Source of the DNA: Mycobacteriales bacterium
GTDB taxonomy: Bacteria; Actinomycetota; Actinomycetes; Mycobacteriales; CADCTP01
Assembly (NCBI GenBank): GCA_045806925.1
Contig: JBJMII010000085.1
Coordinates: forward strand, 1-63,828
Direction: 5' to 3'
DNA length: 63,828 nt
Shown in pieces: positions 1,275 to 62,407 of the stretch; the first letter of the stretch is position 1; the number at the start of each line of letters is the position of its first letter. The notes beneath the pieces were generated by a model. It made no database searches. It was not told where the DNA came from and was given only the letters and a program-made list of their open reading frames with translations. The position numbers and the translations under genes are program-made.

Positions 1275-2236
1275 GGATCGCACCCGGCGTGCCCGGCGCC
1301 CGCATCCTCGCTCTCGGCGAGCACCAGCCGGCGAAGGTGGTCACCAACCACGACCTGGCTGCCCGGATGGACACCAGCGACCAGTGGATCCGCAACCGGG
1401 TCGGCATCGCCAGCCGGCGGGTCGCCGGACCGGACGAGTCGGTGGTCGACATGGCGGTCGCCGCCGGCGGCAAGGCAATCGCGGCCAGCGGTCTGGCCGC
1501 CGCCGACGTCGACCTGGTCATCGTCGCCACCTGCACGATGCCCAGCCCGATCCCGAACGCGGCGCCCCAGGTGGCGACCCGGCTCGGCATCCAGGCGCCG
1601 GGGGCGTACGACCTGAACGCGGCCTGCGCCGGCTTCGTCTACGGGCTGAACGCGGGCGCCTCCGCGATCACCACCGGCGCGGCCCGGCACGTGCTGCTGA
1701 TCGGCGCGGAGAAGCTGACCGACTGGGTGGATCAGCAGGACCGCTCGACCGCGATCATCTTCGCCGACGGGGCCGGCGCGGCCGTGCTCGGCCCGGCCGG
1801 CACCGAGGAGGAGATCGGCATCGGCCCGGTGGCCTGGGGCAGCGCCGGCGAGCGGGCGGACACCATCTACATCCGGGACCGCGACTCCTTCCTCTGGCAG
1901 GAGGGGCAGGCGGTCTTCCGGTGGGCCACCACCTCGCTCGCCCCGGTGGCGCTGGAGGCCTGCAAGCGGGCCGGGATCTCGGTCACCGACCTGGCCGCGT
2001 TCGTCCCGCACCAGGCCAACCTGCGGATCATCGAGGCGGTCGCCCGCAAGCTCGACGCACCCGGGGTGCCGGTGGCCACCGACATCGTGGAGTCCGGCAA
2101 CACCTCCTCGGCGTCGATCCCGCTGGCCCTGGCCCGGATGGTCGAGCGCGGGGAGCTGTCGTCCGGCGCGCCGGTGCTGCTGCTCGGCTTCGGTGCCGGG
2201 CTCACGTACGCGGGGCAGGTCGTGCTCTGTCCCTGA
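1271..2236 (+). CDS. fabH: 3-oxoacyl-ACP synthase III
   Basis: AACAGF (Cys), PHQAN (His), GNTSSAS (Asn), GFGAG. ATG at 1271 overlaps the fabD stop (ATGA). Confidence 0.96.
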   Translation: MRIAPGVPGARILALGEHQPAKVVTNHDLAARMDTSDQWIRNRVGIASRRVAGPDESVVDMAVAAGGKAIAASGLAAADVDLVIVATCTMPSPIPNAAPQVATRLGIQAPGAYDLNAACAGFVYGLNAGASAITTGAARHVLLIGAEKLTDWVDQQDRSTAIIFADGAGAAVLGPAGTEEEIGIGPVAWGSAGERADTIYIRDRDSFLWQEGQAVFRWATTSLAPVALEACKRAGISVTDLAAFVPHQANLRIIEAVARKLDAPGVPVATDIVESGNTSSASIPLALARMVERGELSSGAPVLLLGFGAGLTYAGQVVLCP

Positions 2237-2248
2237 CCTGTCCCTGAC
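2227..2248. repeat. 11-bp tandem duplication spanning the fabH stop codon
   Basis: CTGTCCCTGAC x2. Confidence 0.8.
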
Positions 2249-2277
2249 CGGCCCACCCGCAAGCCGAACCCGGACCC

Positions 2278-2369
2278 GGAACCAACGACCGGAACCAACG
2301 ACCGGAACCGACGACCTGGAAACGACGACCTGGAAACGACGACCTGGAAACGACGACCGGAAACGACGA
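2278..2369. repeat. 13-14 bp tandem repeat, about 7 units
   Basis: GGAACCAACGACC x2, GGAACCGACGACCT, GGAAACGACGACC(T) x3 and a partial unit; ends at the acpP RBS. Confidence 0.92.
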
Positions 2370-2381
2370 GAGGAAGACACA

Positions 2382-2630
2382 GTGGCGAACGAGGATGTCC
2401 GCGCCGGCCTGGCCGAGATCCTGGAGGAGGTCGCCGGCGTGCTGCCGGCGGACGTCAGCGAGGAGAAGTCGTTCACCGACGACCTCGACGTCGACTCGCT
2501 GTCCATGGTCGAGATCGCGCTGGCCGCGGAGGAGCGCTTCGGGGTGAAGATCCCGGACGACGAGCTGGCCAACCTGCGCACCGTCGGCGACGCGGTCGGC
2601 TACATCGAGAAGGCCCAGGCCGCGGCGTGA
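2382..2630 (+). CDS. acpP: Acyl carrier protein (FAS II)
   Basis: DLDVDSLSMVEI phosphopantetheine motif; GTG at 2382 after GAGAGGAAG. Confidence 0.96.
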   Translation: MANEDVRAGLAEILEEVAGVLPADVSEEKSFTDDLDVDSLSMVEIALAAEERFGVKIPDDELANLRTVGDAVGYIEKAQAAA

Positions 2631-2736
2631 CCGCGCGCGCAGGCTCCCGGCCGGATCGGGGAGCCGTCCGGCCGGCTGCCGCGCGCAGGGGTACGCCGAT
2701 GGGCGCGGTGCCGGGGAGCACGACCGAGGAGAGCCC

Positions 2737-3987
2737 ATGACCACCCGACCGACCGTCGTCGTGACCGGGCTGGGCGCCACCACGCCGCTCGGCGGCGACG
2801 TACGCTCCACCTGGGCGGGCCTGCTGGCCGGGCGCTCCGGGGTGACGCCGCTGACCGACGACTGGGCCAGAGACTTCCCGGCCCGGATCATCGCCCGGAT
2901 GGCCGTCGAGCCCACCACCGTGTTGGAGCGGGTGGAGGCCCGCCGGCTGGACCGCTGCCAGCAGGCAGCGCTGGTGGCCGGCCGGGAGGCCTGGGCGGAC
3001 GCCGGCTACGCCACTCTGAAGCGCGGCGGTGACGGCGACGCGGTGGACCCGGACCGGCTGGCCGTGGTGATCGGCACCGGCATCGGCGGCGCGCTGACGA
3101 TGCTCGGCCAGGACGACGTCCTGGAGTCCCGCGGCGTGCGCCGGGTGTCGCCGCTCACCGTGCCCATGCTCATGCCGAACGGGCCGGCCGCCGCGCTGGG
3201 CCTCGAGTTCGGCGCCCGGGCCGGCGTGCACACCCCGGTGAGCGCCTGCGCCAGCGGCGCGGAGGCCATCGCGCTCGGGCTGGACCTGATCCGGGCCGGC
3301 CGCGCCGACGTGGTCGTGGTCGGCGGCACCGAGGCGGTGGTGCACCCGCTGCCGATGGCCGGCTTCGCCCAGATGCGCGCGCTGTCCACCCGCAACGACG
3401 AGCCGGAGTCGGCGTCCCGCCCGGTCGACAAGGGCCGGGACGGTTTCGTGCTCGGCGAGGGCGCGGGCGTGCTGGTGCTGGAGCGGGCGGACCACGCCGC
3501 CGGCCGCGGGAAGAACCCGTACGCGGTGCTCGCCGGCGCCGGCATCACCTCCGACGGCTACCACATCACCGCCCCGGACCCGGCCGGCACCGGCGCCGCC
3601 CGGGCGATCAGCATCGCGCTCCGGGACGCCGACCTGTCGCCGGGGGACGTCGCGCACGTCAACGCGCACGCCACCTCGACTCCGGTCGGCGACGTCGCCG
3701 AGGCGCTGGCGATCCGCACCTCGATCGGTGACCACCCGCTGCTCACCGCGCCGAAGTCGATGCTGGGACACCAGCTCGGCGCGGCCGGCGCGGTGGAGAC
3801 GATCGCCACCGTGCTGACCGTCCATAACGACATCGTGCCGGTGACCCGCAACCTCGACGACCTCGACGACGACGTGCAGCTGGACGTCGTGTCGGTCGAG
3901 CCGCGCCGGCTGCCGGTGCCGGCAGCCGTCAACGACGCCTTCGGCTTCGGCGGCCACAACGTGGCCGTCGTGGTCCGCAAGCCCTGA
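2737..3987 (+). CDS. fabF: 3-oxoacyl-ACP synthase II
   Basis: SACASG (Cys), NAHATST, KSMLGH, FGFGGHN. Confidence 0.96.
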   Translation: MTTRPTVVVTGLGATTPLGGDVRSTWAGLLAGRSGVTPLTDDWARDFPARIIARMAVEPTTVLERVEARRLDRCQQAALVAGREAWADAGYATLKRGGDGDAVDPDRLAVVIGTGIGGALTMLGQDDVLESRGVRRVSPLTVPMLMPNGPAAALGLEFGARAGVHTPVSACASGAEAIALGLDLIRAGRADVVVVGGTEAVVHPLPMAGFAQMRALSTRNDEPESASRPVDKGRDGFVLGEGAGVLVLERADHAAGRGKNPYAVLAGAGITSDGYHITAPDPAGTGAARAISIALRDADLSPGDVAHVNAHATSTPVGDVAEALAIRTSIGDHPLLTAPKSMLGHQLGAAGAVETIATVLTVHNDIVPVTRNLDDLDDDVQLDVVSVEPRRLPVPAAVNDAFGFGGHNVAVVVRKP

Positions 3988-4033
3988 TGCCCGCCCTGAC
4001 CCGCACGGGCCCGCCCACCGTTTCGCACACCTA

Positions 4034-5479
4034 GTGAAGGAGTCTCAGGTGGCCTCCCCCCTGCTGGACCGGACGGACGACACGCCCGACTGGCGGGACC
4101 CGGCCGTCCGCCTCGCGGCGCTGCTGGACCCCGGGTCGCTGCGCAAGCTCGCGCCCTTCGACAACAGCGGCGCGTACGCCGCCCGGGGCACCATCGCCGG
4201 CAGCCGTGTGGTCGCGTACGCGACCGACCCGCAGAAGATGGGCGGCGCGATGGGCTCGGACGGCTGCCGGCACATCGTGGACGCGATCGACACCGCGGTC
4301 CGCGAGCGGGTGCCGGTGGTCGGGCTGTGGCACTCCGGCGGCGCCCGGCTGGCCGAGGGCGTCGAGGCGCTGGACGCGGTCGGCCAGGTCTTCGCCGCGA
4401 TGGTGCGCGCCTCCGGGCGGGTGCCGCAGATCTCGGTGGTGCTCGGCCCGGCGGCCGGCGGGGCCGCGTACGGCCCGGCGCTGACCGACATCGTGGTGAT
4501 GGGGCCGGGTGGCCGGGTCTTCGTGACCGGGCCGGACGTGGTGCGCTCGGTGACCGGCGAGGACGTCGACATGGAGCGGCTCGGCGGCCCGGACACGCAC
4601 GGGCGGCGCTCCGGCGTGGCGCACGTGGTGGCCAAGACCGATGCCGAGGCGCTGGCCGAGGGCCGCCGGCTGGCCGAGCTGCTGGCCCGGCCGGGCCGGA
4701 TCGACCTCGGCTCGCTGGCCGCCACCGACCTCGGCGAGCTGCTCCCGGACAACCCGAAGCGCGCGTACGACGTGCACCCGCTGATCGCCGGCCTGCTAGA
4801 CCCGGCGCCGGATGGGCAGCCGGCCGCGTCGGTGGAGCTGCACGCCCGGTGGGCGCCGAACATCGTCACCTCGCTCGGCCGGCTGGCCGGCCGCACCGTC
4901 GGCGTGATCGCGAACAACCCGATGCGGCTCGGCGGCTGCCTGGACTCGGCGTCGGCGGAGAAGGCGGCGCGGTTCGTGCGGATGTGCGACGCCTTCGGGG
5001 TGCCGCTGGTGGTGCTGGTGGACGTGCCGGGCTACCTGCCCGGGGTCGGCCAGGAGTGGGACGGCGTGGTGCGGCGCGGTGCGAAGCTGCTGCATGCCTT
5101 CGCCGAGGCGGTGGTGCCGCGGGTGACGCTGGTGACCCGGAAGGCGTACGGCGGGGCGTACATCGCGATGAACTCCCGCTCGCTCGGCGCGACCGCGGTC
5201 TACGCCTGGCCGGACGCGCAGGTCGCGGTGATGGGCCCGTCCGCGGCGGTCGGCATCCTGCACCGCAGGAAGCTCGCCGCGGCCCCGCCCGGGGAGCGGG
5301 AGGCGCTGCACGCGCAGCTCGCCGCCGAGCACGAGAAGGTCGCCGGCGGCGTCAACCGAGCCCTGGAGATCGGCGTGGTGGACGCGGTCGTCGAGCCCGC
5401 GGAGACCCTGCGCACGCTGGCCGAGGCACTCGCCGGCGCCCCCTCCGGCCGCGGCGCGCACGGCAACATCCCGCTCTGA
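4034..5479 (+). CDS. Acyl-CoA carboxylase carboxyltransferase (beta) subunit
   Basis: SGGARLAEG, DVPGYLPG, RKAYGGAY and C-terminal HGNIPL motifs; AccD6-like position in the fab operon. Start may be 4049. Confidence 0.93.
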   Translation: MKESQVASPLLDRTDDTPDWRDPAVRLAALLDPGSLRKLAPFDNSGAYAARGTIAGSRVVAYATDPQKMGGAMGSDGCRHIVDAIDTAVRERVPVVGLWHSGGARLAEGVEALDAVGQVFAAMVRASGRVPQISVVLGPAAGGAAYGPALTDIVVMGPGGRVFVTGPDVVRSVTGEDVDMERLGGPDTHGRRSGVAHVVAKTDAEALAEGRRLAELLARPGRIDLGSLAATDLGELLPDNPKRAYDVHPLIAGLLDPAPDGQPAASVELHARWAPNIVTSLGRLAGRTVGVIANNPMRLGGCLDSASAEKAARFVRMCDAFGVPLVVLVDVPGYLPGVGQEWDGVVRRGAKLLHAFAEAVVPRVTLVTRKAYGGAYIAMNSRSLGATAVYAWPDAQVAVMGPSAAVGILHRRKLAAAPPGEREALHAQLAAEHEKVAGGVNRALEIGVVDAVVEPAETLRTLAEALAGAPSGRGAHGNIPL

Positions 5480-13777: not shown

Positions 13778-14821
13778 ATGGACGCGTTCGCCCGGCTCGA
13801 CGCCCGGCTGCGGGAATGGGCGGAGCAGCGCGACTACTCCGGCATCGCGCGGATCAGCCGCGGCGCCGGGGTGGACTTCGAGGGCTGCTACGGGCTGGCC
13901 AACCGGGCGGACGGGGTGCCCGTGCACCCGGGCACCCGGTTCGGGCTCGCCTCGTTCACCAAGATGTTCACCGCGGTGGCGGTGGCCGACCAGGTCCGGG
14001 CCGGGCGGGCCGGCCCGGAGGGATTCGGCACCCGGGTGGTCGACATCCTGCCGGCCCAGCGCCGGCCGTCCACCCTGCTGCCCGAGGTCACGCTGCACCA
14101 CCTGCTCACGCACACCTCCGGCATCGCGGACTACGCGGAGGAGGAGGGCGACGCGGCGGTCGACTACGCCGACCTGTGGGTCGAGCGGGCCTGCTACCGG
14201 ATGCGCCGCCCGGCCGACTTCCTGCCGATGTTCGGCGACCTCCCGCCGTACCGGCCACCAGGCGGCCGGTGGCGCTACTCCAACGCCGGCTACGTGCTGC
14301 TCGGCCTGGTGATCGAGGAGCTGGCCGGCCGGCCGTACGCCGACGTGGTCGCCGAGCGGGTCTTCGGCCCGGCCGGGATGGCGGCCAGCGGCTTCTTCCC
14401 GCTGGACGAGGTGCGGCCGGACCTGGCCATGGGCCAGCTGCGCCCGGCCGAGCCCGGCGGGCCGTGGCGGACCAACATCTACTCGGTGCCGATCGTCGGC
14501 GGCGCGGACGGCGGCGCCTGCTGCACGGCCGCGGACGTGGACCGCTTCCTCCGCCGGTACGACGACGGCACGCTGCTCGGCCGGGAGCTGACCGACACCA
14601 TGCTCACCCCGCGGGTACCCGTCGAGCGGGGGCTGGACATGGGCTACGGCGTGCTGATCCACGCCGACCGGTGGGGGCACGGCGGCGGCGACCCCGGTTT
14701 CGAGATGCTGGCGCACCGGATGCCCGCGCAGGACGCCGCCGTGGTCGCGCTGTGCAACGTCAACGGCCTCGCGGGCGAGGTCCGCGACCTGCTGGTCGAG
14801 ACCGTGCACGCCACCGCCTGA
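13778..14821 (+). CDS. Serine hydrolase, beta-lactamase/PBP fold
   Basis: SFTK (SxxK), LLTHTSG, YSN, HGG. Confidence 0.9.
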   Translation: MDAFARLDARLREWAEQRDYSGIARISRGAGVDFEGCYGLANRADGVPVHPGTRFGLASFTKMFTAVAVADQVRAGRAGPEGFGTRVVDILPAQRRPSTLLPEVTLHHLLTHTSGIADYAEEEGDAAVDYADLWVERACYRMRRPADFLPMFGDLPPYRPPGGRWRYSNAGYVLLGLVIEELAGRPYADVVAERVFGPAGMAASGFFPLDEVRPDLAMGQLRPAEPGGPWRTNIYSVPIVGGADGGACCTAADVDRFLRRYDDGTLLGRELTDTMLTPRVPVERGLDMGYGVLIHADRWGHGGGDPGFEMLAHRMPAQDAAVVALCNVNGLAGEVRDLLVETVHATA

Positions 14822-14875: not shown

Positions 14876-15586
14876 TCAGTACGGGCGGCGGGTGAGGCTC
14901 GCGTGCACCATCTCGGTGAGCGTGACGATGTCGAAGACCGGCAACCCGGTCCGCGCCTGCATCGCGTGCGCGAAGGGCACCAGGTCGGTGCACTCCAGCA
15001 GCAGCGCGCCGACCGCCGGGTCGTCCGCGACCAGCTGCTCGGCCCGGCCGAGCACCTCCCGCCGCAGCCGGTCCACGTCCAGCTCCGACCGCCGGGCCTC
15101 CAGCATGACCTGGCGGAACTCCGGCTGCTCCGCCATCCCGGCGACCGCCACCGGGACGTCCTCGGCGCCGACCGCGCGCAGGTGCCGCGGCGTCAGCGAC
15201 GGCCGCTTCGCGGTGAGCACCCCGACCTTCTGGTCCGGCCGCAGCATCCGGTGCACCATCGGCAGCTGCACCAGGCTGGACGTGTAGAGCGGCACGCCGA
15301 CCGCGGCGGCGAGCTCCCGCTGGAACAGCACCAGGAAGCCGCACCCGGTGGTGATCGCGCCGACGCCCTGCGCCTCCAGCTTGCGGGCCGCCGCGGCGAA
15401 GGGTTCCAGCAGCGCCGGGTCGGCCTGGGTGACCACCCGCTCCGCGGTCGCGCCGGCCACCACCTCGTACACCACCGGGAAGCCGAACGTGGCCGGGTTG
15501 CGGATGTGCCCGGGGATCTTGGTGAACGAGGTGTCCAGCCCGATGACCCCGATCGCGACGTCGGGCTGCCCGCCACTCATCTCCAC
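14876..15586 (-). CDS. Aspartate/glutamate/hydantoin racemase family protein
   Basis: TTGCGF and LLECTDL two-Cys motifs; LPVFD. Confidence 0.85.
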   Translation of the reverse strand: MEMSGGQPDVAIGVIGLDTSFTKIPGHIRNPATFGFPVVYEVVAGATAERVVTQADPALLEPFAAAARKLEAQGVGAITTGCGFLVLFQRELAAAVGVPLYTSSLVQLPMVHRMLRPDQKVGVLTAKRPSLTPRHLRAVGAEDVPVAVAGMAEQPEFRQVMLEARRSELDVDRLRREVLGRAEQLVADDPAVGALLLECTDLVPFAHAMQARTGLPVFDIVTLTEMVHASLTRRPY

Positions 15587-16911
15587 CGTCCCATCGCGAC
15601 CATCCTCTTCGGACGGCCCGGGCCGCGCCGGGCGGAGCCGAACCGGCCGAGCCGGAACGGCGCCAGGTCCAGCTCCGGCGGCTCACCGGCCACGATCCGG
15701 GCAACCACCTCCCCGGCCGCCGGCGCCAGCCCCATCCCGATCGTCCCGTGTCCACAGGCGACGGTCAGGTTCCGGTACGGTGCGGCGCGGCCGAGGAAAG
15801 GGATGCTGTCCGGCGTGCACGGCCGGAAGCCCCGCCATACCTCGACGATCTCGGTCCGCTCCAGGCTGGGCAGGAACTCCCGGGCCGTATCGAGCAGGCC
15901 GTCCACCCGCGCCCGGGAGAAGGTACCGTCCAAACCGGACAGCTCTAGGCTGCCGGCCAGCCGGAGCCGGTCGCCGAGCGGCGCCATCGCCACCGTCCCC
16001 TCGCCGAGCAGCACCGGCCGCCGCGGCGCGTTCGCCGGCATCCGCACGGTCACGCTGTAGCCCTTCACCGGCTGCAGCTCCAGGCCGACGCCCAGCCGGC
16101 GCGCGAGCTCGGTCGTCCAGCTGCCGGCCGCGAGGACCGTCTCGGCCGGCCGGAAGTCGCCGCGGGTGGTGCGCACCTGCCGCACCCGCTCGCCGGCGAC
16201 GTCGAAGTCGAGCACCTCGGTGAACGGGTGGATCTCGACGCCCCGGTCGGCGAGCAGGCTGGCCAGCTCGACGGCGAAGGCCGGCGCGTGCACGGCGCCG
16301 CCCTCGGGGTTGTAGAGCGCGCCGTGCACGGCGAAGTCCACGCCCGGCTCCAGCGCGGCCAGCTCGCCGGCGCCGAGCACCCGCAGCGGCACCCCGTGCG
16401 CGGCCGCCCGCGGGACGGTCCGGGCGGCCGCCTCGAAGCCCGCCGCGGTCCGGAAGGCGAGCACCATGCCGTCCTCCGTGAAGGTGGCCGCCAGGCCGCC
16501 GGACCCGGCCGGCGAGCAGAGCTCCCGCAGCATCGCCAGGCTGCGCTGCTTCAGCTCGACCAGCACCCGGTAGCCGGCCGCCGCGGTCGGCTCGTCGCAG
16601 GCCCGGCGGAAGTGCCACAGCCAGGACAGCAGCTCCCCGTCCCGGCGCAACCGGACCGACAGCGGGCCGGCCGGGTCGAGCAGCCGCCGGTACCGACCAG
16701 GGCCGCCGCCGGCCAGCTCCGCCGGCTGCGCCAGCGGCGCCGCGCCCTGGGCGCCGACGAAGCCGGTGTTGCCGGACGAGCAGGACTGCGGGCCGCCGAC
16801 CGGGCCGCGCTCCAGCACCGCGACGCCGATGCCGCGGCGGCGCAGGTGGTACGCGCAGAACAGGCCGGCCACCCCGGCACCGACGATGAGCACCTCCGGG
16901 TCGGGCGGCAC
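15577..16911 (-). CDS. FAD-dependent D-amino-acid dehydrogenase-like oxidoreductase
   Basis: GAGVAG, SSGNTG, PVKGYS, GFRPCTPDSIP, GHGTIG. Confidence 0.88.
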   Translation of the reverse strand: MPPDPEVLIVGAGVAGLFCAYHLRRRGIGVAVLERGPVGGPQSCSSGNTGFVGAQGAAPLAQPAELAGGGPGRYRRLLDPAGPLSVRLRRDGELLSWLWHFRRACDEPTAAAGYRVLVELKQRSLAMLRELCSPAGSGGLAATFTEDGMVLAFRTAAGFEAAARTVPRAAAHGVPLRVLGAGELAALEPGVDFAVHGALYNPEGGAVHAPAFAVELASLLADRGVEIHPFTEVLDFDVAGERVRQVRTTRGDFRPAETVLAAGSWTTELARRLGVGLELQPVKGYSVTVRMPANAPRRPVLLGEGTVAMAPLGDRLRLAGSLELSGLDGTFSRARVDGLLDTAREFLPSLERTEIVEVWRGFRPCTPDSIPFLGRAAPYRNLTVACGHGTIGMGLAPAAGEVVARIVAGEPPELDLAPFRLGRFGSARRGPGRPKRMVAMGRWR

Positions 16912-16913
16912 GT

Positions 16914-17003
16914 CTAGCTGCTCACGACGGAGAAGTCCGTCGGCCGGGCGACGACCTCGGCCATCGCGCCCTCGACGAGGTCGGCCCGGGCCGCCGCCGT
17001 CAC
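16914..17003 (-). CDS. Possible 29-aa coupled peptide
   Basis: GTG overlaps the methyltransferase stop (GTGA); TAG ends 2 nt before the next start. No homology recognised. Confidence 0.25.
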   Translation of the reverse strand: MTAAARADLVEGAMAEVVARPTDFSVVSS

Positions 17004-17914
17004 CGGGCCGCCCCCCGGCCGGCCGGCTTGCGGGCGACGATCATCCCCCAGCCGAACTCGCCGTCCGCGATGGCGATCTGCAACTGCTTGCAGGACTCGG
17101 CGAAGGCGAGCATCCAGTCCCGGGCCGCTGCGGTGTCCACTGTGGACGTCGTGTCGGCCGGGTCCGCTGTGGACGCTGTGGACGCTGTGGACACGATGGA
17201 CTCCGCCCGCTCGGCGGCGGTGCGGCCGAGCACCCGGTAGGTCTGCTTGAGGTGGGAGGCGAGGTCGAGGCCGAGCACGATGTCGAAGCCGGCCTGCTCC
17301 AGCGCGGCCTGGTAGCCGGCCAGCGAGTAGCCGCCGTTCCACCGGACCCGGTCGTAGACGTGCTTGCGGGCGCGCTCGCTCACCTCCTGCTTCGGCTGCA
17401 GGAAGTCGGAGAAGGCGAACAGCCCGCCGGGCCGCAGCACCCGGAACACCTCGCGGTGGGTGGTCGGCTTCTCCGGCACCAGGAAGAGCGCGTCCTGGCT
17501 GACCACGTGGCTGAAGGTGTCCGGCCTGAACGGCATCCGGGTGGCCGAGCCGTGCCGGAACTCGACGTCCAGCCCGCCCGCGCCGGCCAGCTTCCGCTTC
17601 GCGAAGGCGATCCGCTCGCTGCTGAGGTCCAGCCCGACGCCGCGGCAGCCGAAGCGCTGGGCGAGCTCGATGAGGAAGTTGCCGCACCCGCAGCCGACGT
17701 CCAGCACGGAGGACGAGCTGTCGATCTCCGCGTACTCGGCCAGGATCTCCGACGTCCGTGCGGACGCGGCCCGGTAGTCCTCGTCCCGCTCGCCGGTGAA
17801 GTAGCCGGTGTGCAGGACGCCGTCGGCGTCCCAGAAGCTCAGGTACGTGCCCAGGGTCTCGTCGAAGAAGGCCTCGACGTCCTGCTCGGTGTAGGTCTGG
17901 CTCGCCGTCGTCAT
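17000..17914 (-). CDS. Class I SAM methyltransferase (glycine/sarcosine N-methyltransferase or sterol-MT like)
   Basis: LHTGYF, VLDVGCGCG, RVLRPGG; RBS AGGAG. Confidence 0.88.
   Translation of the reverse strand: MTTASQTYTEQDVEAFFDETLGTYLSFWDADGVLHTGYFTGERDEDYRAASARTSEILAEYAEIDSSSSVLDVGCGCGNFLIELAQRFGCRGVGLDLSSERIAFAKRKLAGAGGLDVEFRHGSATRMPFRPDTFSHVVSQDALFLVPEKPTTHREVFRVLRPGGLFAFSDFLQPKQEVSERARKHVYDRVRWNGGYSLAGYQAALEQAGFDIVLGLDLASHLKQTYRVLGRTAAERAESIVSTASTASTADPADTTSTVDTAAARDWMLAFAESCKQLQIAIADGEFGWGMIVARKPAGRGAAR
17139..17192. repeat. In-frame 9-bp repeat inside the methyltransferase
   Basis: GCTGTGGAC x3 (17166-17192) plus a variant at 17139; encodes STASTASTA. Confidence 0.8.
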
Positions 17915-17934
17915 CGCCCGGCTGCTCCTGTCTC

Positions 17935-18025
17935 GGGTCGGTCTGAGGGTCGGTCTGAGGGTCGGGCCTGAGGGTCGGTCCCAGGGTCGGGTCGGGGGGT
18001 CGGGTCCGGGGTCGAGGTCCGGGGG
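17935..18025. repeat. Degenerate 12-bp tandem repeat
   Basis: GGGTCGGTCTGA x2 followed by decaying GGGTCG-led copies. Confidence 0.75.
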
Positions 18026-18026
18026 A

Positions 18027-18854
18027 TCAGGTGAAGGTGTCCTTGCGGACCGCGGTCAGGTGCGGCAGCGGCGGCGGGGTCACACTGGCGCCGCCGTCGA
18101 TCAGCTGGACGGTGCCGGTCACGAACGACGCCCGCTCCCCGGCGAGGAAGGCGATCACCGCGGCGACCTCGTCCGGCTGGGCCAGCCGGCCCAGCGCATT
18201 GTGGCTGCCGATCAGCCGCAGCTGCGCCTCGACGTCGCCGTCCCGGGCCAGCCGGGCGGCCGCCCGCTCCTCCGGCGGGGTACGGGTGATGCCCGGAGCC
18301 AGCACGTTCACGGTGATGCCGTCCCGGCCGACCTCGGCGGCCAGCGACTGGGCGAACCGCACGATCGCGGCCCGGGTCACCCCGGACAGCGCCAGCGGCG
18401 CCACCGGCACCGCGGCCGTCTCCGAGGTGATGAACAGCAGCCGGCCCCAGCCGGCCGCCTTGAGGTGCGGCAGCGCGGCCAGCGCCAGGCTCACCGCGGG
18501 CAGCAGCACCTCGTCCAGCGCGGCCCGGTACTCCGGCAGGTCGAACTGGTCGGCCGTGCCGATCGGCGGGCCGGCCCCGTTGACCACCACCACGTGCAGC
18601 GCGCCGAAATCGGCGGCCACCTCGTCCACCCAGCGGCCGACCGCGGCCGGGTCCCTGATGTCCACGCTGGTCGCGTGCACCCGGCCGCGCGCCACCTCCT
18701 TGAGCTCCCGCCCCGCGGCCGCCAGCCGCTCCGGGTCGCGGGCGCCGATGGCGACGTCGGCGCCCTCGGCGGCCAGCTCGCGGGCGGCGGCCAGGCCCAG
18801 CCCGCTCGACCCGCCGGCGACGAGCGCGACCCTGTTGTGCAGTCCCAGGTCCAC
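18027..18854 (-). CDS. SDR family oxidoreductase (atypical catalytic motif)
   Basis: GGSSGLG; SxxxR (SGVTR) in place of YxxxK; FVTG..IDGG; RBS AAGGAGG. Confidence 0.9.
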   Translation of the reverse strand: MDLGLHNRVALVAGGSSGLGLAAARELAAEGADVAIGARDPERLAAAGRELKEVARGRVHATSVDIRDPAAVGRWVDEVAADFGALHVVVVNGAGPPIGTADQFDLPEYRAALDEVLLPAVSLALAALPHLKAAGWGRLLFITSETAAVPVAPLALSGVTRAAIVRFAQSLAAEVGRDGITVNVLAPGITRTPPEERAAARLARDGDVEAQLRLIGSHNALGRLAQPDEVAAVIAFLAGERASFVTGTVQLIDGGASVTPPPLPHLTAVRKDTFT

Positions 18855-18865
18855 CAGGTCCTCCT

Positions 18866-19831
18866 TCACGTCCGGGTCCGCTGCGCCGCCCGCGCGCCGG
18901 CCGGGATGCCCGAGCCGAAGGTGCCGCGGTACCGGTAGCCGTACCGGGAGAACAACGGCCAGGACAGCGTCACCGCGGCCAGCTTGGCCGAGGCCGGCAG
19001 CGCGGTCCGCCAGGAGTCGTCGGACTCCCGCAGCACGGTCGGGCCGGTGACGAACCGGTCCGGGTTGCCGGTCACCGTGTGGTTGGTGTGCAGCTCGACG
19101 GTGCGGCCGCGCACCGGGTTCGCCGCCGGGTCGGCGCCGCACAGCCGCAGCAGGGAGTCGATCGTGCCGGCCGGATCGGCCATGAAGTCCTCGTACCGGA
19201 GGAAGAGCGAGCGCTCCCGGTGCCGGCGCAGGATGGCGGCCGCCGCCAGGTTGAAGCCGTACCAGTACGCGGTGCTGGTCCGGGACGGCATCACGTAGCA
19301 GTACTGCTTCTCCTGGCTCCACGACTGGGCCACCGCCCGCGGGTCCCGGACCAGGTGCACGAAGTACGTCTCGGTCCCCTCCAGGTACGGCAGCAGCGCC
19401 GCCTCGCCGGGGATCTTGGTGGTGTCCACCACCACCCGGGCACCGGTTCGCTCGGCGGCGGCGTGGTAGACGCGGGTCATCAGCTCCGCATGCGCGCGGA
19501 TGTCGGGGCCGTCCAGTCCCCGGTGGAGCACCCGCCAGGTGTGCCGGGTCCGGACGCAGGACCGCTGCCGCCGGATGACCTCGTCCGCGTGCGCCTCCGG
19601 GGACATCCCGGCCGGCCGGCCCACCGGCAGGATCTGCGACCACACCGGGCACCCGGTCAGGTGCCGGCCGCAGCCGCAGGAGCTGTTCGCGCCGCGGCCG
19701 ACCGAGTTCTTCCACAGGAAGTGCAGCTCGCCGACGTGGAAGAGGCCCGGCACCTCGTTCAGCACGTTGCCGACGATGGTGCTGCCGTTGCGGCACCAGC
19801 CGGTGATGCAGAGGATCGTCAGCGGGTCCAT
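18866..19831 (-). CDS. PAPS-dependent sulfotransferase family protein
   Basis: 5'-PSB-like GWCRNGST, CGCG..C..W, DTTK, 3'-PB LVRDPRAVAQS, LRYEDF. Confidence 0.87.
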   Translation of the reverse strand: MDPLTILCITGWCRNGSTIVGNVLNEVPGLFHVGELHFLWKNSVGRGANSSCGCGRHLTGCPVWSQILPVGRPAGMSPEAHADEVIRRQRSCVRTRHTWRVLHRGLDGPDIRAHAELMTRVYHAAAERTGARVVVDTTKIPGEAALLPYLEGTETYFVHLVRDPRAVAQSWSQEKQYCYVMPSRTSTAYWYGFNLAAAAILRRHRERSLFLRYEDFMADPAGTIDSLLRLCGADPAANPVRGRTVELHTNHTVTGNPDRFVTGPTVLRESDDSWRTALPASAKLAAVTLSWPLFSRYGYRYRGTFGSGIPAGARAAQRTRT

Positions 19832-19843
19832 GGCCTCCCCGGC

Positions 19844-21016
19844 TCAGCTCCCTGACGGCACCGTCGGCACGGACGGCGCCGGCTGGCGGGTCAGGGCGGC
19901 GACGGCGATCGCGGCCGCCGCGCAGGCCGCGCCGAGGACGAAGACCGCGGGGTAGCCGAAACCGGCCGCCACCGCCCCGGTCACCGGCCCGCCGACGATC
20001 AGGCCGAGCTCCCAGAAGGACGTGTACGCCCCGATCGCCGCGCCCTGCTTCGCCTTGTCGGTGCGGTCGAGCACCATCAGCGCCAGCGACGGGTGCAGCA
20101 GCGAGAAGCCCACCCCCATCACCAGGCCGCCGAGCACGGCGACCGGGAGGTTGGGCGCGACCGCGATGACCAGCAGGCCGACCGCCTCGCCGGCCGCGGA
20201 CCAGGTCGCCACCCGGCGGGGGCCGAGCTTGTCCGGCAGGTGCCCGATGACCAGCCGGGTCCCGGCGTAGACGGCGCTGAAGCAGGTCAGCACGGCGACC
20301 CCGGAGTGGACGCCGCGGGCGTCCAGGTGCAGGACCACGAAGGCGGCCAGTCCGGCGTACCCGACGGCGGCGAGCGCGAGCGCGGTCCCCGGCACCACCG
20401 CGGGCCGCAGCAGCAGGCGGCGGCCGCCGGGCTGGCCGGAGCCGGCACCGCCGGCCGCCGCCGGCACCGAGCTGATCAGCAGCAGCCCGAGCAGCGGCGC
20501 GGCCAGGCTGAAGGCCCAGACCGCCGAGTAGTCGATCCGCTCCAGCAACGCGCCGATGAAGGTGCCGGCCGAGATCCCGCCCCACATGCTGACCCCGTAC
20601 AGCCCGATCAGCTGGCCGCGGCGCTCGTGCGGCGCGATCGACACCGTCCACACCGCACCGGCGGTGAACAGCGACGCCTCGCCGACGCCGAGCAACAGCC
20701 GGACCAGCAGCAGCCCGGGCAGGCCGAACGGCAGGAAGTAGAGCAGCCCGCCGGTCGCCACGACCAGCGCGCCGAGCTGCATGACCCGGCGGTGGCCGTA
20801 CCGGTCGGCGAGGCCGCCGGCGACCGGCCGGACCAGCAGCGCGGTCACCGCGGTCGCGGTGACCACCAGCCCGACCACCACGTTGCCGCCGTCCAGCCGC
20901 TGCCGGACGAAGCCGGGCAGCACCGGGATGACCGCGGCCAGCCCGAGGTAGCCGCAGAACAGCCCGCCGAAGATGCCGACCAGGGCGAGCCGGGGGATCG
21001 CCGGCCGGTCGCTCAC
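19844..21016 (-). CDS. MFS transporter
   Basis: GGLADRYGHRR motif A and multiple TM segments; GTGA overlap. Confidence 0.92.
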   Translation of the reverse strand: MSDRPAIPRLALVGIFGGLFCGYLGLAAVIPVLPGFVRQRLDGGNVVVGLVVTATAVTALLVRPVAGGLADRYGHRRVMQLGALVVATGGLLYFLPFGLPGLLLVRLLLGVGEASLFTAGAVWTVSIAPHERRGQLIGLYGVSMWGGISAGTFIGALLERIDYSAVWAFSLAAPLLGLLLISSVPAAAGGAGSGQPGGRRLLLRPAVVPGTALALAAVGYAGLAAFVVLHLDARGVHSGVAVLTCFSAVYAGTRLVIGHLPDKLGPRRVATWSAAGEAVGLLVIAVAPNLPVAVLGGLVMGVGFSLLHPSLALMVLDRTDKAKQGAAIGAYTSFWELGLIVGGPVTGAVAAGFGYPAVFVLGAACAAAAIAVAALTRQPAPSVPTVPSGS

Positions 21017-22353
21017 CGGGCCGCCGCCACCCGGCGGACCGCCTCGACCAGCTGGTCGCAGTCGGCCAGCTCCAGTGTGGACGACAGCGGGACGTCCACC
21101 GCGTCCTGCAGGTGGCGGGTGGTCGCCGGCAGCAGCGCCTGGATGGCCGGCACGTCCATGTCGCCGAAGAGGAACCGCCAGTTCCAGAAGACCCGCACGT
21201 TGGTGTCCGCGCCGGAGCCGAGGTTGCGCGCGTCGATGCCCTCCCGGCACAGCGCGTGCGCGAACCACTCCGCGTCCCCGTCCGGGACCCGGAAGATGAA
21301 CGCCTCGCCGAGGAACGCCCCGGGCGCCACCGGCCGGCGGATCGCGATCTGCGGCACGTCCGCGAGCGCCGCGGCGACGTAGTCGTAGTTGCGGTGGAAG
21401 AGGCCCAGCCGGATCGGCAGCCGGGTCAGCTCGGCCCGCAGCAGCGCGGCCCGGATCTCGTCCATCCGGAAGTTGTACAGCGGCAGGTCCAGGTCGGAGC
21501 CGATGGGCGGGGCCCCGTCCGGGAAGTGCCGGCGCAGCCGCCCCTCGTACGCGCCGGACAGCACCACGGCCCGGGCGAACAGGGCGCTGTCGTCGGTGAC
21601 CAGGAAGCCGCCCTCGCCGCAGTTCAGCGCCTTGTCCGACTGCGTGCTGAAGGCGCCGGCCAGGCCGAACGTGCCGAGCTTGCGGCCGCCCAGCTCCGCG
21701 CCGAGCGCCGGCACCGCGTCCTCGATCAGCGGCACGCCCATCTCCGCGGCGAAGCTGATCAGCGCCTCCATGTCGGCGGCGAAGCCGCGCATGTGCACGA
21801 CCACGATGGCCCGGACCTCCGGAGTCCAGCGGCGGCGCAGGTCGGCGACGTCGAGGTGCAGGTTCTCGTCCACCTCGACCAGCAGCGGCCGGCAGCCGGC
21901 CAGCACGATCGCGCTCGGGGTGGCCACGAAGGTGAAGCCCGGACAGGCGACCTGCGAGCCGGCCGGCACCCCGGCGCCCATCAGCGCGAGCGCGAGCGCG
22001 GTGGTGCCGCTGGAGACCGCCAGCGCGTGCCGGCTGCCGAAGTACGCGCTCAGCTCGTCCTCCAGCTGGCCGCACTCGGTGTCCTGCTGGGCCCGGCAGT
22101 CGTAGCGGAAGTAGAGGTGGCTGCGGATCGCCCGCAGCGCCGCCGCCTCGTCCTCCGCGTGCACGAAGACCGCGCCCTTGTCGTACGTCGGCCACGGCGC
22201 CGTCCGGACCGGGGTCCCCCCGTCGACGGCGAGCCGGGTACGCTGGCCGCCGCGCAGTGGCCGAGTTGAGATCGCTACCTCGTCAGACTTTTCGATCCGA
22301 TCCAACGCCCGAACTCCAAGATCGTCTTGTTCGGCGCCGCGAGCTGCTGTCAC
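21013..22353 (-). CDS. DegT/DnrJ/EryC1/StrS PLP aminotransferase
   Basis: AVSSGT, FTFVAT, VVHMRG, IEDA, FSTQSDKALNCGEGG (PLP Lys). Start uncertain. Confidence 0.9.
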   Translation of the reverse strand: MTAARGAEQDDLGVRALDRIEKSDEVAISTRPLRGGQRTRLAVDGGTPVRTAPWPTYDKGAVFVHAEDEAAALRAIRSHLYFRYDCRAQQDTECGQLEDELSAYFGSRHALAVSSGTTALALALMGAGVPAGSQVACPGFTFVATPSAIVLAGCRPLLVEVDENLHLDVADLRRRWTPEVRAIVVVHMRGFAADMEALISFAAEMGVPLIEDAVPALGAELGGRKLGTFGLAGAFSTQSDKALNCGEGGFLVTDDSALFARAVVLSGAYEGRLRRHFPDGAPPIGSDLDLPLYNFRMDEIRAALLRAELTRLPIRLGLFHRNYDYVAAALADVPQIAIRRPVAPGAFLGEAFIFRVPDGDAEWFAHALCREGIDARNLGSGADTNVRVFWNWRFLFGDMDVPAIQALLPATTRHLQDAVDVPLSSTLELADCDQLVEAVRRVAAAR

Positions 22354-27581: not shown

Positions 27582-27968
27582 TCACGGTAGAGGACCCGGG
27601 CCACCCCGCCCGGCCGCCGCCCCGGAGGTCTCCCCCATGGGGTGGGTGATGGCATCGCCGGTGATGTCGACGGTGAGCCGGTCGACGAGGCCGGTGATGC
27701 GGACGAGCCGGTCCAGCTCGGCCGGCACGCCGCGCAGCCGCAGCGAGTTTCCCCCGGTCGAGGCCGCCCGCTGGACGACGGTCAGCACGGCGACGCCGGC
27801 GGAGTCCATCGCGGTCACCGAGCCGAGGTCCACCACGACCAGCCGGGCCTCGCCGAGCGCACGCAGCAGCACGTCCCGGAGCTGGGCGGACGTCCGGGTG
27901 TCCACTTCTCCGGCGACGGCGACCCACACCTCGCGGTCGAGCCGGACCGACCGGATCTCGACGCCCAC
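27582..27968 (-). CDS. STAS domain anti-anti-sigma factor
   Basis: VAGEVD, VVDLGSVTAMDSAG (phospho-Ser motif), ITGL; RBS GGAGGAGG. Confidence 0.88.
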   Translation of the reverse strand: MGVEIRSVRLDREVWVAVAGEVDTRTSAQLRDVLLRALGEARLVVVDLGSVTAMDSAGVAVLTVVQRAASTGGNSLRLRGVPAELDRLVRITGLVDRLTVDITGDAITHPMGETSGAAAGRGGPGPLP

Positions 27969-28078
27969 GGCACCTCCTCCCGGGGCGGCTCGTCCCGGGC
28001 TCTCGGGGGAGGGACCCCGGGACGAGCCGTCGGCAGAGGGACCTCGCCCCCGGGCCGGCATGACGGCATGCTGGGTGC

Positions 28079-28192
28079 GGTCCGGTAGACGTTCCGGTCC
28101 GGTAGACGTTCCGGTCCGGTAGACGTTCCGGTCCGGTAGACGTTCCGGTCCGGTAGACGTTCCGGTCCGGTAGACGTTCCGGTCCGGTAGAC
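28079..28192. repeat. Perfect 17-bp tandem array (6 full units plus a 12-nt partial)
   Basis: GGTCCGGTAGACGTTCC, no spacers; lies between the divergent STAS and recombinase-like genes. Confidence 0.97.
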
Positions 28193-28244
28193 AGGGTGCC
28201 CAGCCGTCCGTCCGGGACGGCGGCAGCCGCTGAAGGGGGGTGCC

Positions 28245-29102
28245 GTGCGGCCCGAGGAACCGTCCACGTACCCGTTCGCGTACCCGTCCGCGATCCGGCA
28301 GGCGTACGACCTCCTGCGCGCCGGGGCCGGCCCGGACAGCATCGCGCGCACCTGGAACGCGGCGGGCCTGCCGGCGCCGAGCGGGCGGCGCGGCGAGTGG
28401 ACCGCGGAGATGGTCCGCGCCGAGCTGACCAGCCACGCGCACATCGGCGGCGATGACGCGGTCCTGCCCGCCCTCACCGAGCCCCCGGCGGCGGTCGCGC
28501 CGGACCCGGAAGACGCCCTGCTGACCGCGGTCGCGGTCTGCGGCGTCTGCGGCGGCCCGGTGCGCACCGAGCGGCTGCCCGCCGACCTGCCGGCGTACCG
28601 GTGCGACGCCGACGGCGGCCACCTCTCCCGCAGCATGGGCCCGGTCGACTCGTGGGTCCGGTTGCGGGCGCTCGACCGGCTCGGCCGCCCGGACACCGCG
28701 CAGCTGGTGGCCGACCCGGACCGGCCGGACCTCTACGCACTGCGGGCGCACGCGGCCGGGCTGCGGACCCGGCGAAGCCAGCTGGAGCAGGCCGCTGCGA
28801 CCGGCGCGGTGGAGCCGTCGACCGCGACGGCCGGAGCCGACCGGCTGCGCGTCGAGCTCGCCGCGGTCGAGGACCAGATGGTCGACCACTCGCGCCGGAA
28901 CGTGCCCGCGTCGCTGACCGGAGCGGACCCGCTGGACGCGGCCTGGGACCGGCTCGGCACCGCCCGGCAGCGGGGCGTCCTGCTCGCCCTCGCCGAGCGG
29001 GTGGTCCTGCACCCGGTCACCGCGGGCCAGCGGGCCGGCGACGCGGACGTCCTGCGGGACACGGTCGTCATCACCTGGCGCCCAGAGCCGGCCGTGACCT
29101 GA
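28245..29102 (+). CDS. Large serine recombinase C-terminal (recombinase, zinc ribbon, coiled-coil) protein lacking the catalytic domain
   Basis: PFAY..AIRQAY..G..SIARTWNAAG..GEWT..VR; LL..CGVCG..YRC..H; coiled coil; W..L...QR; V.I.W end; RBS AAGGGGGG. Confidence 0.8.
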   Translation: MRPEEPSTYPFAYPSAIRQAYDLLRAGAGPDSIARTWNAAGLPAPSGRRGEWTAEMVRAELTSHAHIGGDDAVLPALTEPPAAVAPDPEDALLTAVAVCGVCGGPVRTERLPADLPAYRCDADGGHLSRSMGPVDSWVRLRALDRLGRPDTAQLVADPDRPDLYALRAHAAGLRTRRSQLEQAAATGAVEPSTATAGADRLRVELAAVEDQMVDHSRRNVPASLTGADPLDAAWDRLGTARQRGVLLALAERVVLHPVTAGQRAGDADVLRDTVVITWRPEPAVT

Positions 29103-30073
29103 TGACCGCACGGCCGCACCCCGCGCCGGTTGCCCCGGCGGCCCGGGGTGAGCACCCTGGCGCCGTGACGTTCCCTTCGGGTCGGCAGGTCGAGCTGCGG
29201 CACGGGACCCAGCGGGCGGTCGTGGTCGAGGTCGGCGGCGGCCTGCGGACGTACCGGCTGGACGGTGTCGACGTCCTGGACGGCTACGCCGAGGACCGGA
29301 TGTGCGACGGCGGCCGCGGCCAGCTGCTGATCCCGTGGCCGAACCGGATCGCCGACGGCCGCTACGAGCTGGCCGGCACCGGCTACCAGCTGGCACTCAC
29401 CGAGCCCGCGACCGGCAACGCGATCCACGGCCTGACCCGCTGGTCGCCGTGGCGGCTGGAGCAGCCGGCGGACGGGCGGGCGATCGGGTCCTGGGTGCTG
29501 CACCCGCAGCCCGGCTACCCGTTCCGGCTCGACTGCACGGTGACGTACCGGCTGGACGGCGCGGGCCTGTCCGTCACCATGGCCGTGGTCAACCGCGCCG
29601 ACCGGGACGCCCCGGTCGGGTTCGGTGCCCACCCGTACCTCGCCGCCGGTACCGGCCTGGTGGACGGCGCGCGGCTCCGGCTGCCCGCGTCGACCCGGCT
29701 GGTCACCGACGACCGGTCGATCCCGCGCGGGCGCGCGCCGGTCGACGGCAGCGAGTACGACTTCCGGGCCGAGCGCGCCATCGGCTCGACCGCACTGGAC
29801 ACCGCGTACGCCGACCTCGACCGGGACCCGGACGGGATGGCCCGGGTCCGGCTGTCCCGCGCCGACGGCCTGCAGGTCACGCTGTGGGCCGACGCGACCT
29901 TCAGCCACCTGCAGGTCTACACCGGCGAGACGCTGCCCGAGCCGCAGCGCCGGCGCGGTCTCGCGGTGGAGCCGATGAGCTGCCCGCCGAACGCCTTCGC
30001 CAGCGGCGACGGCCTGCGGCTGCTCGCCCCCGGTGGGACGCTCGCCGGCAGCTGGGGCATCACCACCGGGTGA
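29102..30073 (+). CDS. Aldose 1-epimerase family protein
   Basis: LIPWPNRI, NAIHG, GAHPY, QVYTG, AVEPM; TGATG coupling to the upstream gene. Confidence 0.9.
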   Translation: MTARPHPAPVAPAARGEHPGAVTFPSGRQVELRHGTQRAVVVEVGGGLRTYRLDGVDVLDGYAEDRMCDGGRGQLLIPWPNRIADGRYELAGTGYQLALTEPATGNAIHGLTRWSPWRLEQPADGRAIGSWVLHPQPGYPFRLDCTVTYRLDGAGLSVTMAVVNRADRDAPVGFGAHPYLAAGTGLVDGARLRLPASTRLVTDDRSIPRGRAPVDGSEYDFRAERAIGSTALDTAYADLDRDPDGMARVRLSRADGLQVTLWADATFSHLQVYTGETLPEPQRRRGLAVEPMSCPPNAFASGDGLRLLAPGGTLAGSWGITTG

Positions 30074-30145
30074 GGGCAGCACCGGGTGAGGGCAGCACCG
30101 GGTGAGGGCAGCCACCGGCTGAGGGCAGCCACCGGCTGAGGGCAG
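30064..30145. repeat. 16-17 bp tandem repeat (5 units) starting over a stop codon
   Basis: CACCGGGTGAGGGCAG x3, then CACCGGCTGAGGGCAG x2. Confidence 0.92.
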
Positions 30146-30157
30146 CCATCGGGTGGG

Positions 30158-32346: not shown

Positions 32347-32480
32347 GGAACCAGCGTCCGGGAACCAGCGTCCGGAACCAGCGTCCGGGAACCAGCGTCC
32401 GGGAACCAGCGTCCGGGAACCAGCGTCCGGGAACCAGCCTCCAGAAGCAGCCTCCGGGAAGCAGCCGAGGGAGCAGCGCA
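32347..32480. repeat. 14-bp tandem repeat (about 6 near-perfect plus decaying units)
   Basis: GGAACCAGCGTCCG units decaying into the RBS of the TfoX gene. Confidence 0.92.
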
Positions 32481-35876: not shown

Positions 35877-36209
35877 ATGGTTGACCGCCACGACCAGCAT
35901 GTCGAGCTCACGGAGGACGGACGGGTCGTCGGCGTCGCGGCCGTCCACCCCGTCCAGGACTCCCCCGTCGTCCGCGCCGAGCTGCACGTCGAAGCGGGGC
36001 ACGTCCCGGTCGGCACCGGCGCCCGGCTCGTCGACGCGGTGCTGGATCTCCCCGAGACCAGGGAGGGCTGCCGGCTGGAGGCGACGGTCCCGATCGGCGA
36101 CACGGAGTCGCTGGACCGGTTGCGGGATCGCTGCGACGCCGTCGAGACCCGCCCGGCCGGAGCGACCTGCCTGGTCGACGCCACGCTTCCCGCCGGTGAG
36201 GAACGCTGA
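35877..36209 (+). CDS. Hypothetical protein
   Basis: RBS GAAGAAGG; GC3-rich frame; no clear motif. Confidence 0.65.
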   Translation: MVDRHDQHVELTEDGRVVGVAAVHPVQDSPVVRAELHVEAGHVPVGTGARLVDAVLDLPETREGCRLEATVPIGDTESLDRLRDRCDAVETRPAGATCLVDATLPAGEER

Positions 36210-62343: not shown

Positions 62344-62358
62344 GGCCGGCCCGCCCCG

Positions 62359-62407
62359 GGCCTCAGGGCCTCAGCGGCCTCAGGGCCTCAGGGCCTCAGG
62401 GCCTCAG
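62359..62407. repeat. 8-bp tandem repeat (6 units) including the PhyH stop
   Basis: GGCCTCAG x6 with one inserted C. Confidence 0.9.

Follow-up and report, generated by a model that had tools for sequence, protein, structure and literature searches.

A headless large serine integrase gene, very probably domesticated in uncultured soil actinobacteria, and its putative link to a stress-type sigma factor module

The locus and the encoded protein

We analysed a stretch of 63,828 nucleotides (the window) from a Mycobacteriales genome that is 79.9% complete. At 28245-29102 on the forward strand, the window carries a gene that encodes a large serine integrase or recombinase (LSR) reduced to its C-terminal body, with no catalytic domain and here called headless, as judged from the open reading frame, Pfam, homologs, an AlphaFold model and structure matches. 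The frame is intact, starts with GTG and encodes 285 residues, its codon bias is gene-like (GC1/2/3 of 0.81/0.58/0.97), and a purine-rich ribosome-binding site precedes it (28232-28240, forward strand), in agreement with the uninterrupted frame and ribosome-binding site of the original prediction. Read along the forward strand, the protein consists of a recombinase domain (RD) reduced to its HTH core (residues 13-78, 28281-28478), a zinc ribbon domain (ZD; residues 92-146, 28518-28682), the ZD/coiled-coil (ZD/CC) junction with the coiled-coil base (residues 147-176, 28683-28772), the coiled-coil tip and return helix (residues 177-218, 28773-28898), and C-terminal helices with a beta-hairpin that completes the ZD (residues 219-279, 28899-29081).

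The Pfam Recombinase family (PF07508) matches residues 16-68 with 23.8 bits, above the cut-off of 21.1, and this match spans profile positions 6-56 of 102. An alignment to 30 close LSRs showed that the beta-hairpin of the RD, about 16 residues long in LSRs, is deleted family-wide, so that the RD is indeed shortened, as had been claimed. Its recognition helix, W52-R58, is highly conserved among the members that have an RD (W52 in 37/37, D55 in 35/37 and R58 in 36/37). Of the profile matches that had been expected, Recombinase was present and Resolvase absent, but Zn_ribbon_recom (PF13408) gave no Pfam match to the window protein at E<=1. The predicted Cys3-His zinc ribbon is nevertheless real, since its ligands are conserved throughout the family: C99, C102 and C120 occur in every one of the 44 aligned members and H126 in all but one, and Y118 and R129 are invariant (44/44).

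The AlphaFold model, which was built from 45 homologs and has a pLDDT of 84, comprises a small helical domain, a beta-ribbon with C99, C102, C120 and H126, a two-helix coiled coil (residues 163-218) and a terminal hairpin. The best five structure matches from a set of 48,161 solved chains were the C-terminal domains (CTDs) of the PhiC31, Bxb1, SPbeta and LI integrases with Z scores of 10.3-12.3, the ZD of Bxb1 aligning over 116 residues (Z 10.6, rmsd 3.2 A). Foldseek agreed on this likeness with 16 matches at E<=0.001. The zinc ribbon, the coiled coil and the LSR-type C-terminus of the original prediction are thus supported by structure as well.

We found no YxRxS motif on the forward strand between 26001 and 28300, and a stop codon lies in frame 18 codons upstream of the gene; the claim that a YxRxS resolvase domain is absent from the gene and from its upstream region therefore stands. 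In the 79.9% complete genome of the window, there was no match anywhere to Resolvase (PF00239) or to the N-terminal 160 residues of 55 close full-length LSRs. In addition, scans that covered 17 window proteins by Pfam and 45 by PHROGs (E<=1e-12) yielded no integrase, transposase or conjugation families, no tRNA genes lie within the window and its GC content is flat. The predicted lack of phage or ICE genes nearby held among these scanned proteins. Their sole phage-labelled match was to phrog_382 ('minor tail protein with lysin activity') at 13778-14821, 14 kb away in an otherwise non-phage region; only a portion of the profile is covered, and a shared hydrolase domain is the probable cause.

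Divergent from the headless gene lies a gene for an anti-anti-sigma-like STAS protein (27582-27968, reverse strand; Pfam STAS/STAS_2), and a motif search identified an ECF-type promoter-like motif, CGTCATG-N16-GTCCC, directed towards it (28038-28065, reverse strand). The headless gene itself is preceded by a perfect tandem repeat of 6.8 units of 17 bp (28078-28192), which occupies the region where most relatives carry an ECF-type motif. Other intergenic tandem repeats, with units of 8-17 bp, are located at 2273-2369, 17935-18032, 30063-30155, 32347-32465 and 62358-62412 of the window, and in L046, whose homolog is the other RD-bearing member without the promoter motif, a 15-bp repeat lies upstream of the gene. 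A SigB/F-like sigma gene lies 4 kb downstream of the headless gene. The window also includes two small secondary-metabolism-like gene groups (102-5479 and 14876-22164), which contain an acyl carrier protein as well as methyltransferase, SDR, MFS and aminotransferase genes.

Directly downstream is an aldose 1-epimerase gene (29165-30073, forward strand; Pfam and orthologs), which most likely has its own start at GTG 29165, judging from orthologs in 10 of the 12 other genus genomes that align from the codon matching this GTG. In none of the eight loci read does the epimerase ortholog stand beside the headless gene. The TGATG that had been taken to couple the two genes exists in the letters, but translational coupling was rejected on the grounds of this start and of orthologs that never adjoin the headless gene.

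Distribution, descent and selection

A homolog search returned 59 matches: the window protein, 55 headless homologs and three full-length LSRs. The headless homologs are 205-370 residues long, 47 of them 263-346 residues, and none has YxRxS within its first 80 residues. By profile search, one copy is present in 8 of the 13 genomes of the window's genus and in none of the three other genomes of the same taxonomic family. The gene was not found in three genus genomes that are 96-100% complete (G007, G008 and G009), which implies gene losses within the genus and indicates that the gene is dispensable. Among 401 genomes of the order, matches at E<=1e-20 occurred in 28 that lie outside the genus, and 21 of these loci were read, revealing 20 full-length LSR frames and one frameshifted LSR. 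When 185,579 species genomes were scanned by pattern, six strong loci emerged, all within the same set of genomes, and a pattern scan of viral contigs (IMG/VR) found no relative of the family; a plasmid search gave one weak match. No fused forms were found among 7,989 candidates of 649-2000 residues, which is weak evidence, and the best long match in a length-free search scored far below the family.

In a quick tree of 117 rows, a single branch (SH-aLRT 100) separated all 43 headless members tested from 74 LSR CTDs. The branching within the family broadly follows the GroEL and RpoB trees, as judged by eye with these two marker genes, and the genomic position of the gene varies between genomes. 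The closest phage relatives are the serine integrases of the mycobacteriophages Curiosium and LastHope, with 30% identity. The window gene derives from an actinobacterial phage-type serine integrase.

Our own GY94 fit (13 sequences, 276 codons) gave a family omega of 0.12. IQ-TREE gave an omega of 0.22 for five syntenic orthologs of the headless gene, compared with 0.12 and 0.19 for two syntenic neighbours. NG86 ratios of distant pairs reached 0.9 and are saturated (GC3 about 0.95). Because the family is uniform in length, single-copy, of roughly vertical descent, with an omega far below 1 and without mobile context, we are highly confident that it has been domesticated in uncultured soil actinobacteria, as the original prediction had proposed for the window gene. 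That prediction named full-length homologues only, together with neutral evolution, as the mark of a pseudogene relic; what we found were 55 headless homologs and an omega of about 0.12.

A gene of integrase origin in an incomplete genome (79.9%) could also be one half of a split recombinase with its catalytic domain elsewhere, or a neutral prophage relic. We consider this highly improbable, and it is largely refuted by the data. PF00239 is absent from six of the eight carrier genomes, including ones that are 97-98% complete, and in the other two it is part of full-length recombinases, which makes a split catalytic partner unlikely. An omega far below 1 also argues against a relic, and a truly broken LSR (L092) provides a contrast, as its catalytic half is retained in another frame.

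The C-terminal regions of LSRs that we compared (LI/A118 4KIS, Bxb1 9IU2, PhiC31 9TEH/9IF5, SPbeta 9DXD and Curiosium/LastHope gp43) have in common with the headless family the HTH core of the RD, the zinc ribbon, the coiled coil inserted in the ZD and the terminal beta-hairpin. In contrast to LSRs, the headless proteins lack the alpha-E dimer helix along with the catalytic domain and the RD beta-hairpin, their coiled-coil tip is eroded, their charge is negative, one subclade has lost the RD altogether, and their genes are chromosomal, single-copy and not part of a mobile element. The median net charge is -3 in the family and -7 in the window protein, compared with +5 in LSR CTDs. In seven members (L020:8256-8891 from G002 and the metagenomic proteins P0027, P0047-P0049, P0051 and P0062), an in-frame deletion has removed the whole RD, leaving the family N-terminus, zinc ribbon, coiled coil and C-terminus in 205-229 residues; these members form a clade with deep branches and support of 93/92.

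Along the protein, omega is lowest at the coiled-coil base (0.046), where D162, G172, R174 and R176 are invariant, the segment before the coiled coil (0.064) and the C-terminus (0.08), intermediate in the RD core (0.10), return helix (0.11) and ZD (0.13), and highest in the linker (0.21) and coiled-coil tip (0.24); the per-domain tests fix branch lengths, so that their significance is overstated. According to PMC11795197, directionality factors (RDFs), which are moonlighting phage proteins, dock on integrases at the ZD/CC junction, including the ZD-proximal coiled coil, and unrelated proteins use this same site. On the basis of the alignments, the most constrained part of the headless protein appears to be the equivalent of this old docking surface. 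The synapsis surface, on the other hand, appears to have decayed: in the alignment to the 30 close LSRs, 29 of 41 members have a coiled-coil tip that is 2-15 residues shorter, with the full length of LSRs (51 residues) kept in the window copy and 11 others.

These features bear on the DNA-bridging role that had been proposed. The ends of the coiled coil mediate integrase dimerisation and the LI CTD dimerises through its coiled coil (PMC5499577), and thus a headless protein with a full-length coiled coil, as in the window, might pair two DNA sites or structure the nucleoid through coiled-coil contacts. However, the part needed for synapsis is both shortened in most members and the least constrained segment of all, the dimer helix is missing and the net charge is negative. 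We therefore regard this role as disfavoured and very unlikely.

The window copy is divergent. Of 111 conserved positions, it departs from the family at 17, more than any other of 37 members, and the YGTCAYG-N16-ST motif described below is absent upstream of it. Neither a sigma-kinase ortholog nor RsbR/RsbS homologs were found in its approximately 80% complete genome. On its branch, omega rises to 0.34 for the RD and to 0.27 for the ZD, while the coiled-coil base and C-terminus remain at background level (0.157 and 0.088). Together with the tandem repeat upstream, this divergence could indicate that the family is functional and the window copy alone is decaying after losing its promoter and the sigma-kinase module. 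We find this reading improbable, because the frame is intact with a GC3 of 0.97, the omega of the whole branch is 0.22 and significantly below 1 (2dlnL 10.7 against omega=1, GY94 fit), and constraint on the coiled coil and C-terminus is undiminished. The window copy is still under selection, and either its target has changed or DNA binding is being shed. In one soil RNA run, 8% of the words were present and one 151-base contig matched 29000-29150 exactly; DNA carry-over is possible, so that this match is not counted as expression.

Promoter motif and sigma-kinase neighbourhood

At five loci (G002, G004, G005, L046 and L052), the headless gene is divergent from an operon headed by a gene for an ECF-type sigma factor with a fused RsbT-like HATPase domain (the sigma-kinase); behind it come genes for RsbR-like and RsbS-like proteins and, on contigs that extend far enough, for RsbU_N. 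Elsewhere, an SRPBCC gene precedes the headless gene (G003, G011, G012 and five metagenomic loci) or a RidA-like gene abuts it (G001 and L044). The sigma-kinase is present in 7/8 carriers and 1/5 non-carriers of the headless gene, although these genomes are kin and the counts are not independent. The fusion operon at L015:7087-9779 (G004) and at L110-L116 has its own conserved promoter-like motif, YGTCAYG-N16-STCC, and our literature search gave no description matching an ECF-sigma/RsbT-kinase fusion with RsbR/RsbS-like partners. A small GNAT-like gene accompanies the module (window 35877-36209, L015:6671-7045, L052:2072-2359 and L193:4653-5006); the one near the headless gene of the window also occurs by it in G004 and L052. 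For the G004 headless member and its neighbouring sigma-kinase, complex prediction gave a score of 0.27, with the mark at 0.32, which weighs neither for nor against an interaction.

We also found a common motif, YGTCAYG-N16-ST, upstream of the headless gene in 8 of 11 regions, of the sigma-kinase in all 8 regions, of the GNAT-like gene in 3 of 4 and of STAS genes in 2 of 2, against a background of 42/3447 genes (1.2%) in the window's genome; the pattern was set only after these same upstream regions had been inspected. It resembles the ECF41 promoter, TGTCACA-n16-CGTC (PMC3426412), in its -35 box and its 16-bp spacer, and the sigma-kinase genes of G003 and G011 are preceded by the exact CGTC -10 box of ECF41. 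It differs from ECF41 in its usual -35 box, CGTCATG, and in a more variable -10 box, and the linked sigma factor has an RsbT-like HATPase domain instead of the ECF41 extension. The motif is best read as a promoter and not an operator since it survives in G009, where the sigma-kinase is present and the headless gene is absent. It also occurs at about twice the frequency of a reversed-pattern control in genomes without headless gene and sigma-kinase, and for this reason we infer, rather than observe, the cognate sigma factor.

The alternatives that the motif is an operator of the headless protein or an att remnant were rejected owing to this retention in G009 and to a PWM search around 20 full-length LSR loci, in which the best score was 16.0, compared with 20.6-25.2 for the training sites. 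Motif searches of the upstream regions revealed no operator for the headless protein, a scan for sigma-70 promoters and terminators found nothing, and no genome-wide regulon emerged in the window's genome, where CGTCATG shows no enrichment in upstream regions (36 against 34 expected) and a spacer of 16 is not preferred. An identical 34-bp sequence, possibly an insertion-element end, occurs three times in G003 (C1:1039538, C2:1355532 and C2:2319333).

The third role that had been put forward, an integrase inhibitor, is possible. A headless protein might act as an anti-phage decoy that occupies att-like sites, or that sequesters phage RDFs or replication proteins, and so blocks integration or excision. 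Its nearest phage relatives are mycobacteriophage integrases, RDFs bind the ZD/CC surface of integrases (PMC11795197) and the patchy presence of the gene is typical of defence genes. The putative stress-type promoter does not fit such a decoy, nor do strong purifying selection and roughly vertical descent with no fast turnover; defence or phage families were not found among the neighbours scanned, and the coiled-coil tip that would be needed to poison integrase synapses is eroded. We therefore regard the decoy as distinctly unlikely.

Proposed function and implications

We tentatively propose, giving it somewhat less than an even chance, that the headless protein is a putative stress-regulon, partner-switched DNA-binding regulator that does not cut. 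An ECF sigma factor, probably the RsbT-kinase fusion, would transcribe the headless gene, and the protein would bind a fixed DNA site through the zinc-ribbon hairpin and, where it is retained, the recognition helix. Partners docking at the ZD/CC junction, the former directionality-factor site, may then switch it. In this scheme, the window copy would be a divergent member in which the promoter motif is gone and the DNA-contacting domains are relaxed. What the data show are the integrase origin, the loss of catalysis, selection, the erosion of domains and the gene neighbourhood; DNA binding, partner binding and regulation are inferred.

This proposal is favoured by the recognition helix, which is fixed where the RD is present, and by the isolated CTDs of Bxb1 and PhiC31, whose affinity for att sites is near that of the full-length enzymes (PMC5499577). 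It is also favoured by the divergent sigma-RsbT operon at five loci, the common upstream motif, the co-occurrence in carriers, and the low omega at the coiled-coil base and C-terminus, the former RDF hotspot. The transcription factor role of the original prediction accordingly fits best of the three proposed there, although it is still unproven. On the other side, the proposal is weakened by the loss of charge, of the RD beta-hairpin and, in some members, of the whole RD. Among the Bxb1 hairpin positions that face DNA is R323 (bioRxiv 10.1101/2024.05.09.593242); its equivalent is usually Ala in the headless family, which disfavours unchanged DNA binding. The absence of an operator from our searches and a window copy without motif, sigma-kinase or RsbR/RsbS weaken the proposal further, as do the dispensability of the gene and a motif that persists without it in G009 and exceeds its control in genomes lacking the sigma-kinase.

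Several of these observations would suit a protein-binding adaptor in which DNA binding is vestigial and the ZD/CC core tunes the stress switch through a sigma-kinase, STAS or GNAT-like partner. Every member keeps this core, the RD-less clade of seven persists, positive charge has been lost, and the strongest constraint falls on the coiled-coil base and the C-terminus, where the window branch shows no change despite its relaxed RD and ZD; unrelated proteins are, moreover, known to dock at the ZD/CC junction (PMC11795197). However, the 37 members that have an RD strongly conserve its recognition helix, with an RD omega of 0.10. In the LI integrase, the RD helix makes contact with three base pairs, and a 9-bp motif is recognised by the ZD alone, through its hairpin (PMC3783163), so that DNA binding may survive the loss of the RD. 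For these reasons we consider the adaptor fairly unlikely, and the DNA-binding regulator remains our preferred reading.

The headless family resembles other domesticated regulators and recombinases of mobile elements (Ner/SfsB, Xre antitoxins, Hin and sporulation integrases; PMC8987985) in being fixed in the host, under purifying selection and likely regulatory. Those described in that source are small HTH factors or active recombinases, unlike the headless proteins. Unusual LSR gene arrangements are also known from the serine integrase triplets of streptococcal ICEs, but according to PMC4701971 all 42 keep a Resolvase domain with its serine and reside in ICEs. Our literature search, with subscription journals and supplements outside its scope, found no description of an LSR without catalytic domain that is kept as a host gene, and the headless family is apparently a real domesticated family, undescribed so far.

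We also observed a second, independent and more distant headless LSR family at L187:1501-2661, L188:1495-2652 and L189:826-1680 (G002, G008 and G009), with 284-386 residues, Recombinase and Zn_ribbon_recom present and Resolvase absent. These genes are located in acetyl-CoA carboxylase/ketosynthase operons (G002 and G008) or adjoin a condensation-like gene (G009). Many relatives of 270-390 residues exist, some of them named in Micromonospora, Streptomyces and Kitasatospora. At least 82 relatives under 400 residues are among the 120 matches listed, none with YxRxS near its start, and one member, P0232, is fused to an acyl-carrier domain. Within the genus, the second family was found only where the first is absent or RD-less (0/7 versus 3/6, p=0.07, in kin that are not independent). 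The existence of two such families suggests that the beheading and retention of integrases occurred more than once.

On a wider view, which we hold to be speculative and on balance unlikely, actinobacteria would have turned headless LSRs into host regulators at least twice. The RDF site would have become an allosteric input that connects a stressosome-type kinase/sigma circuit to DNA output through the zinc ribbon, with the second family acting similarly in biosynthetic clusters. If this is true, the headless proteins would represent a new class of integrase-derived transcription factors. The findings imply that the label 'recombinase family protein' has been given, in actinomycete genomes and their biosynthetic clusters, to many proteins that are not recombinases. 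Our analyses also draw attention to the ECF-sigma/RsbT-kinase fusion with its RsbR/RsbS-like partners and candidate promoter. Overall, the family traces a route from phage integrase to host protein in which the cutting domain is dropped while the zinc-ribbon core and the RDF docking surface are retained. It provides a natural deletion series, from the full integrase through forms without the catalytic domain and with a shorter coiled coil to forms without the RD, which marks the integrase parts that fold and are selected on their own and is useful for engineering integrase DNA-binding modules.
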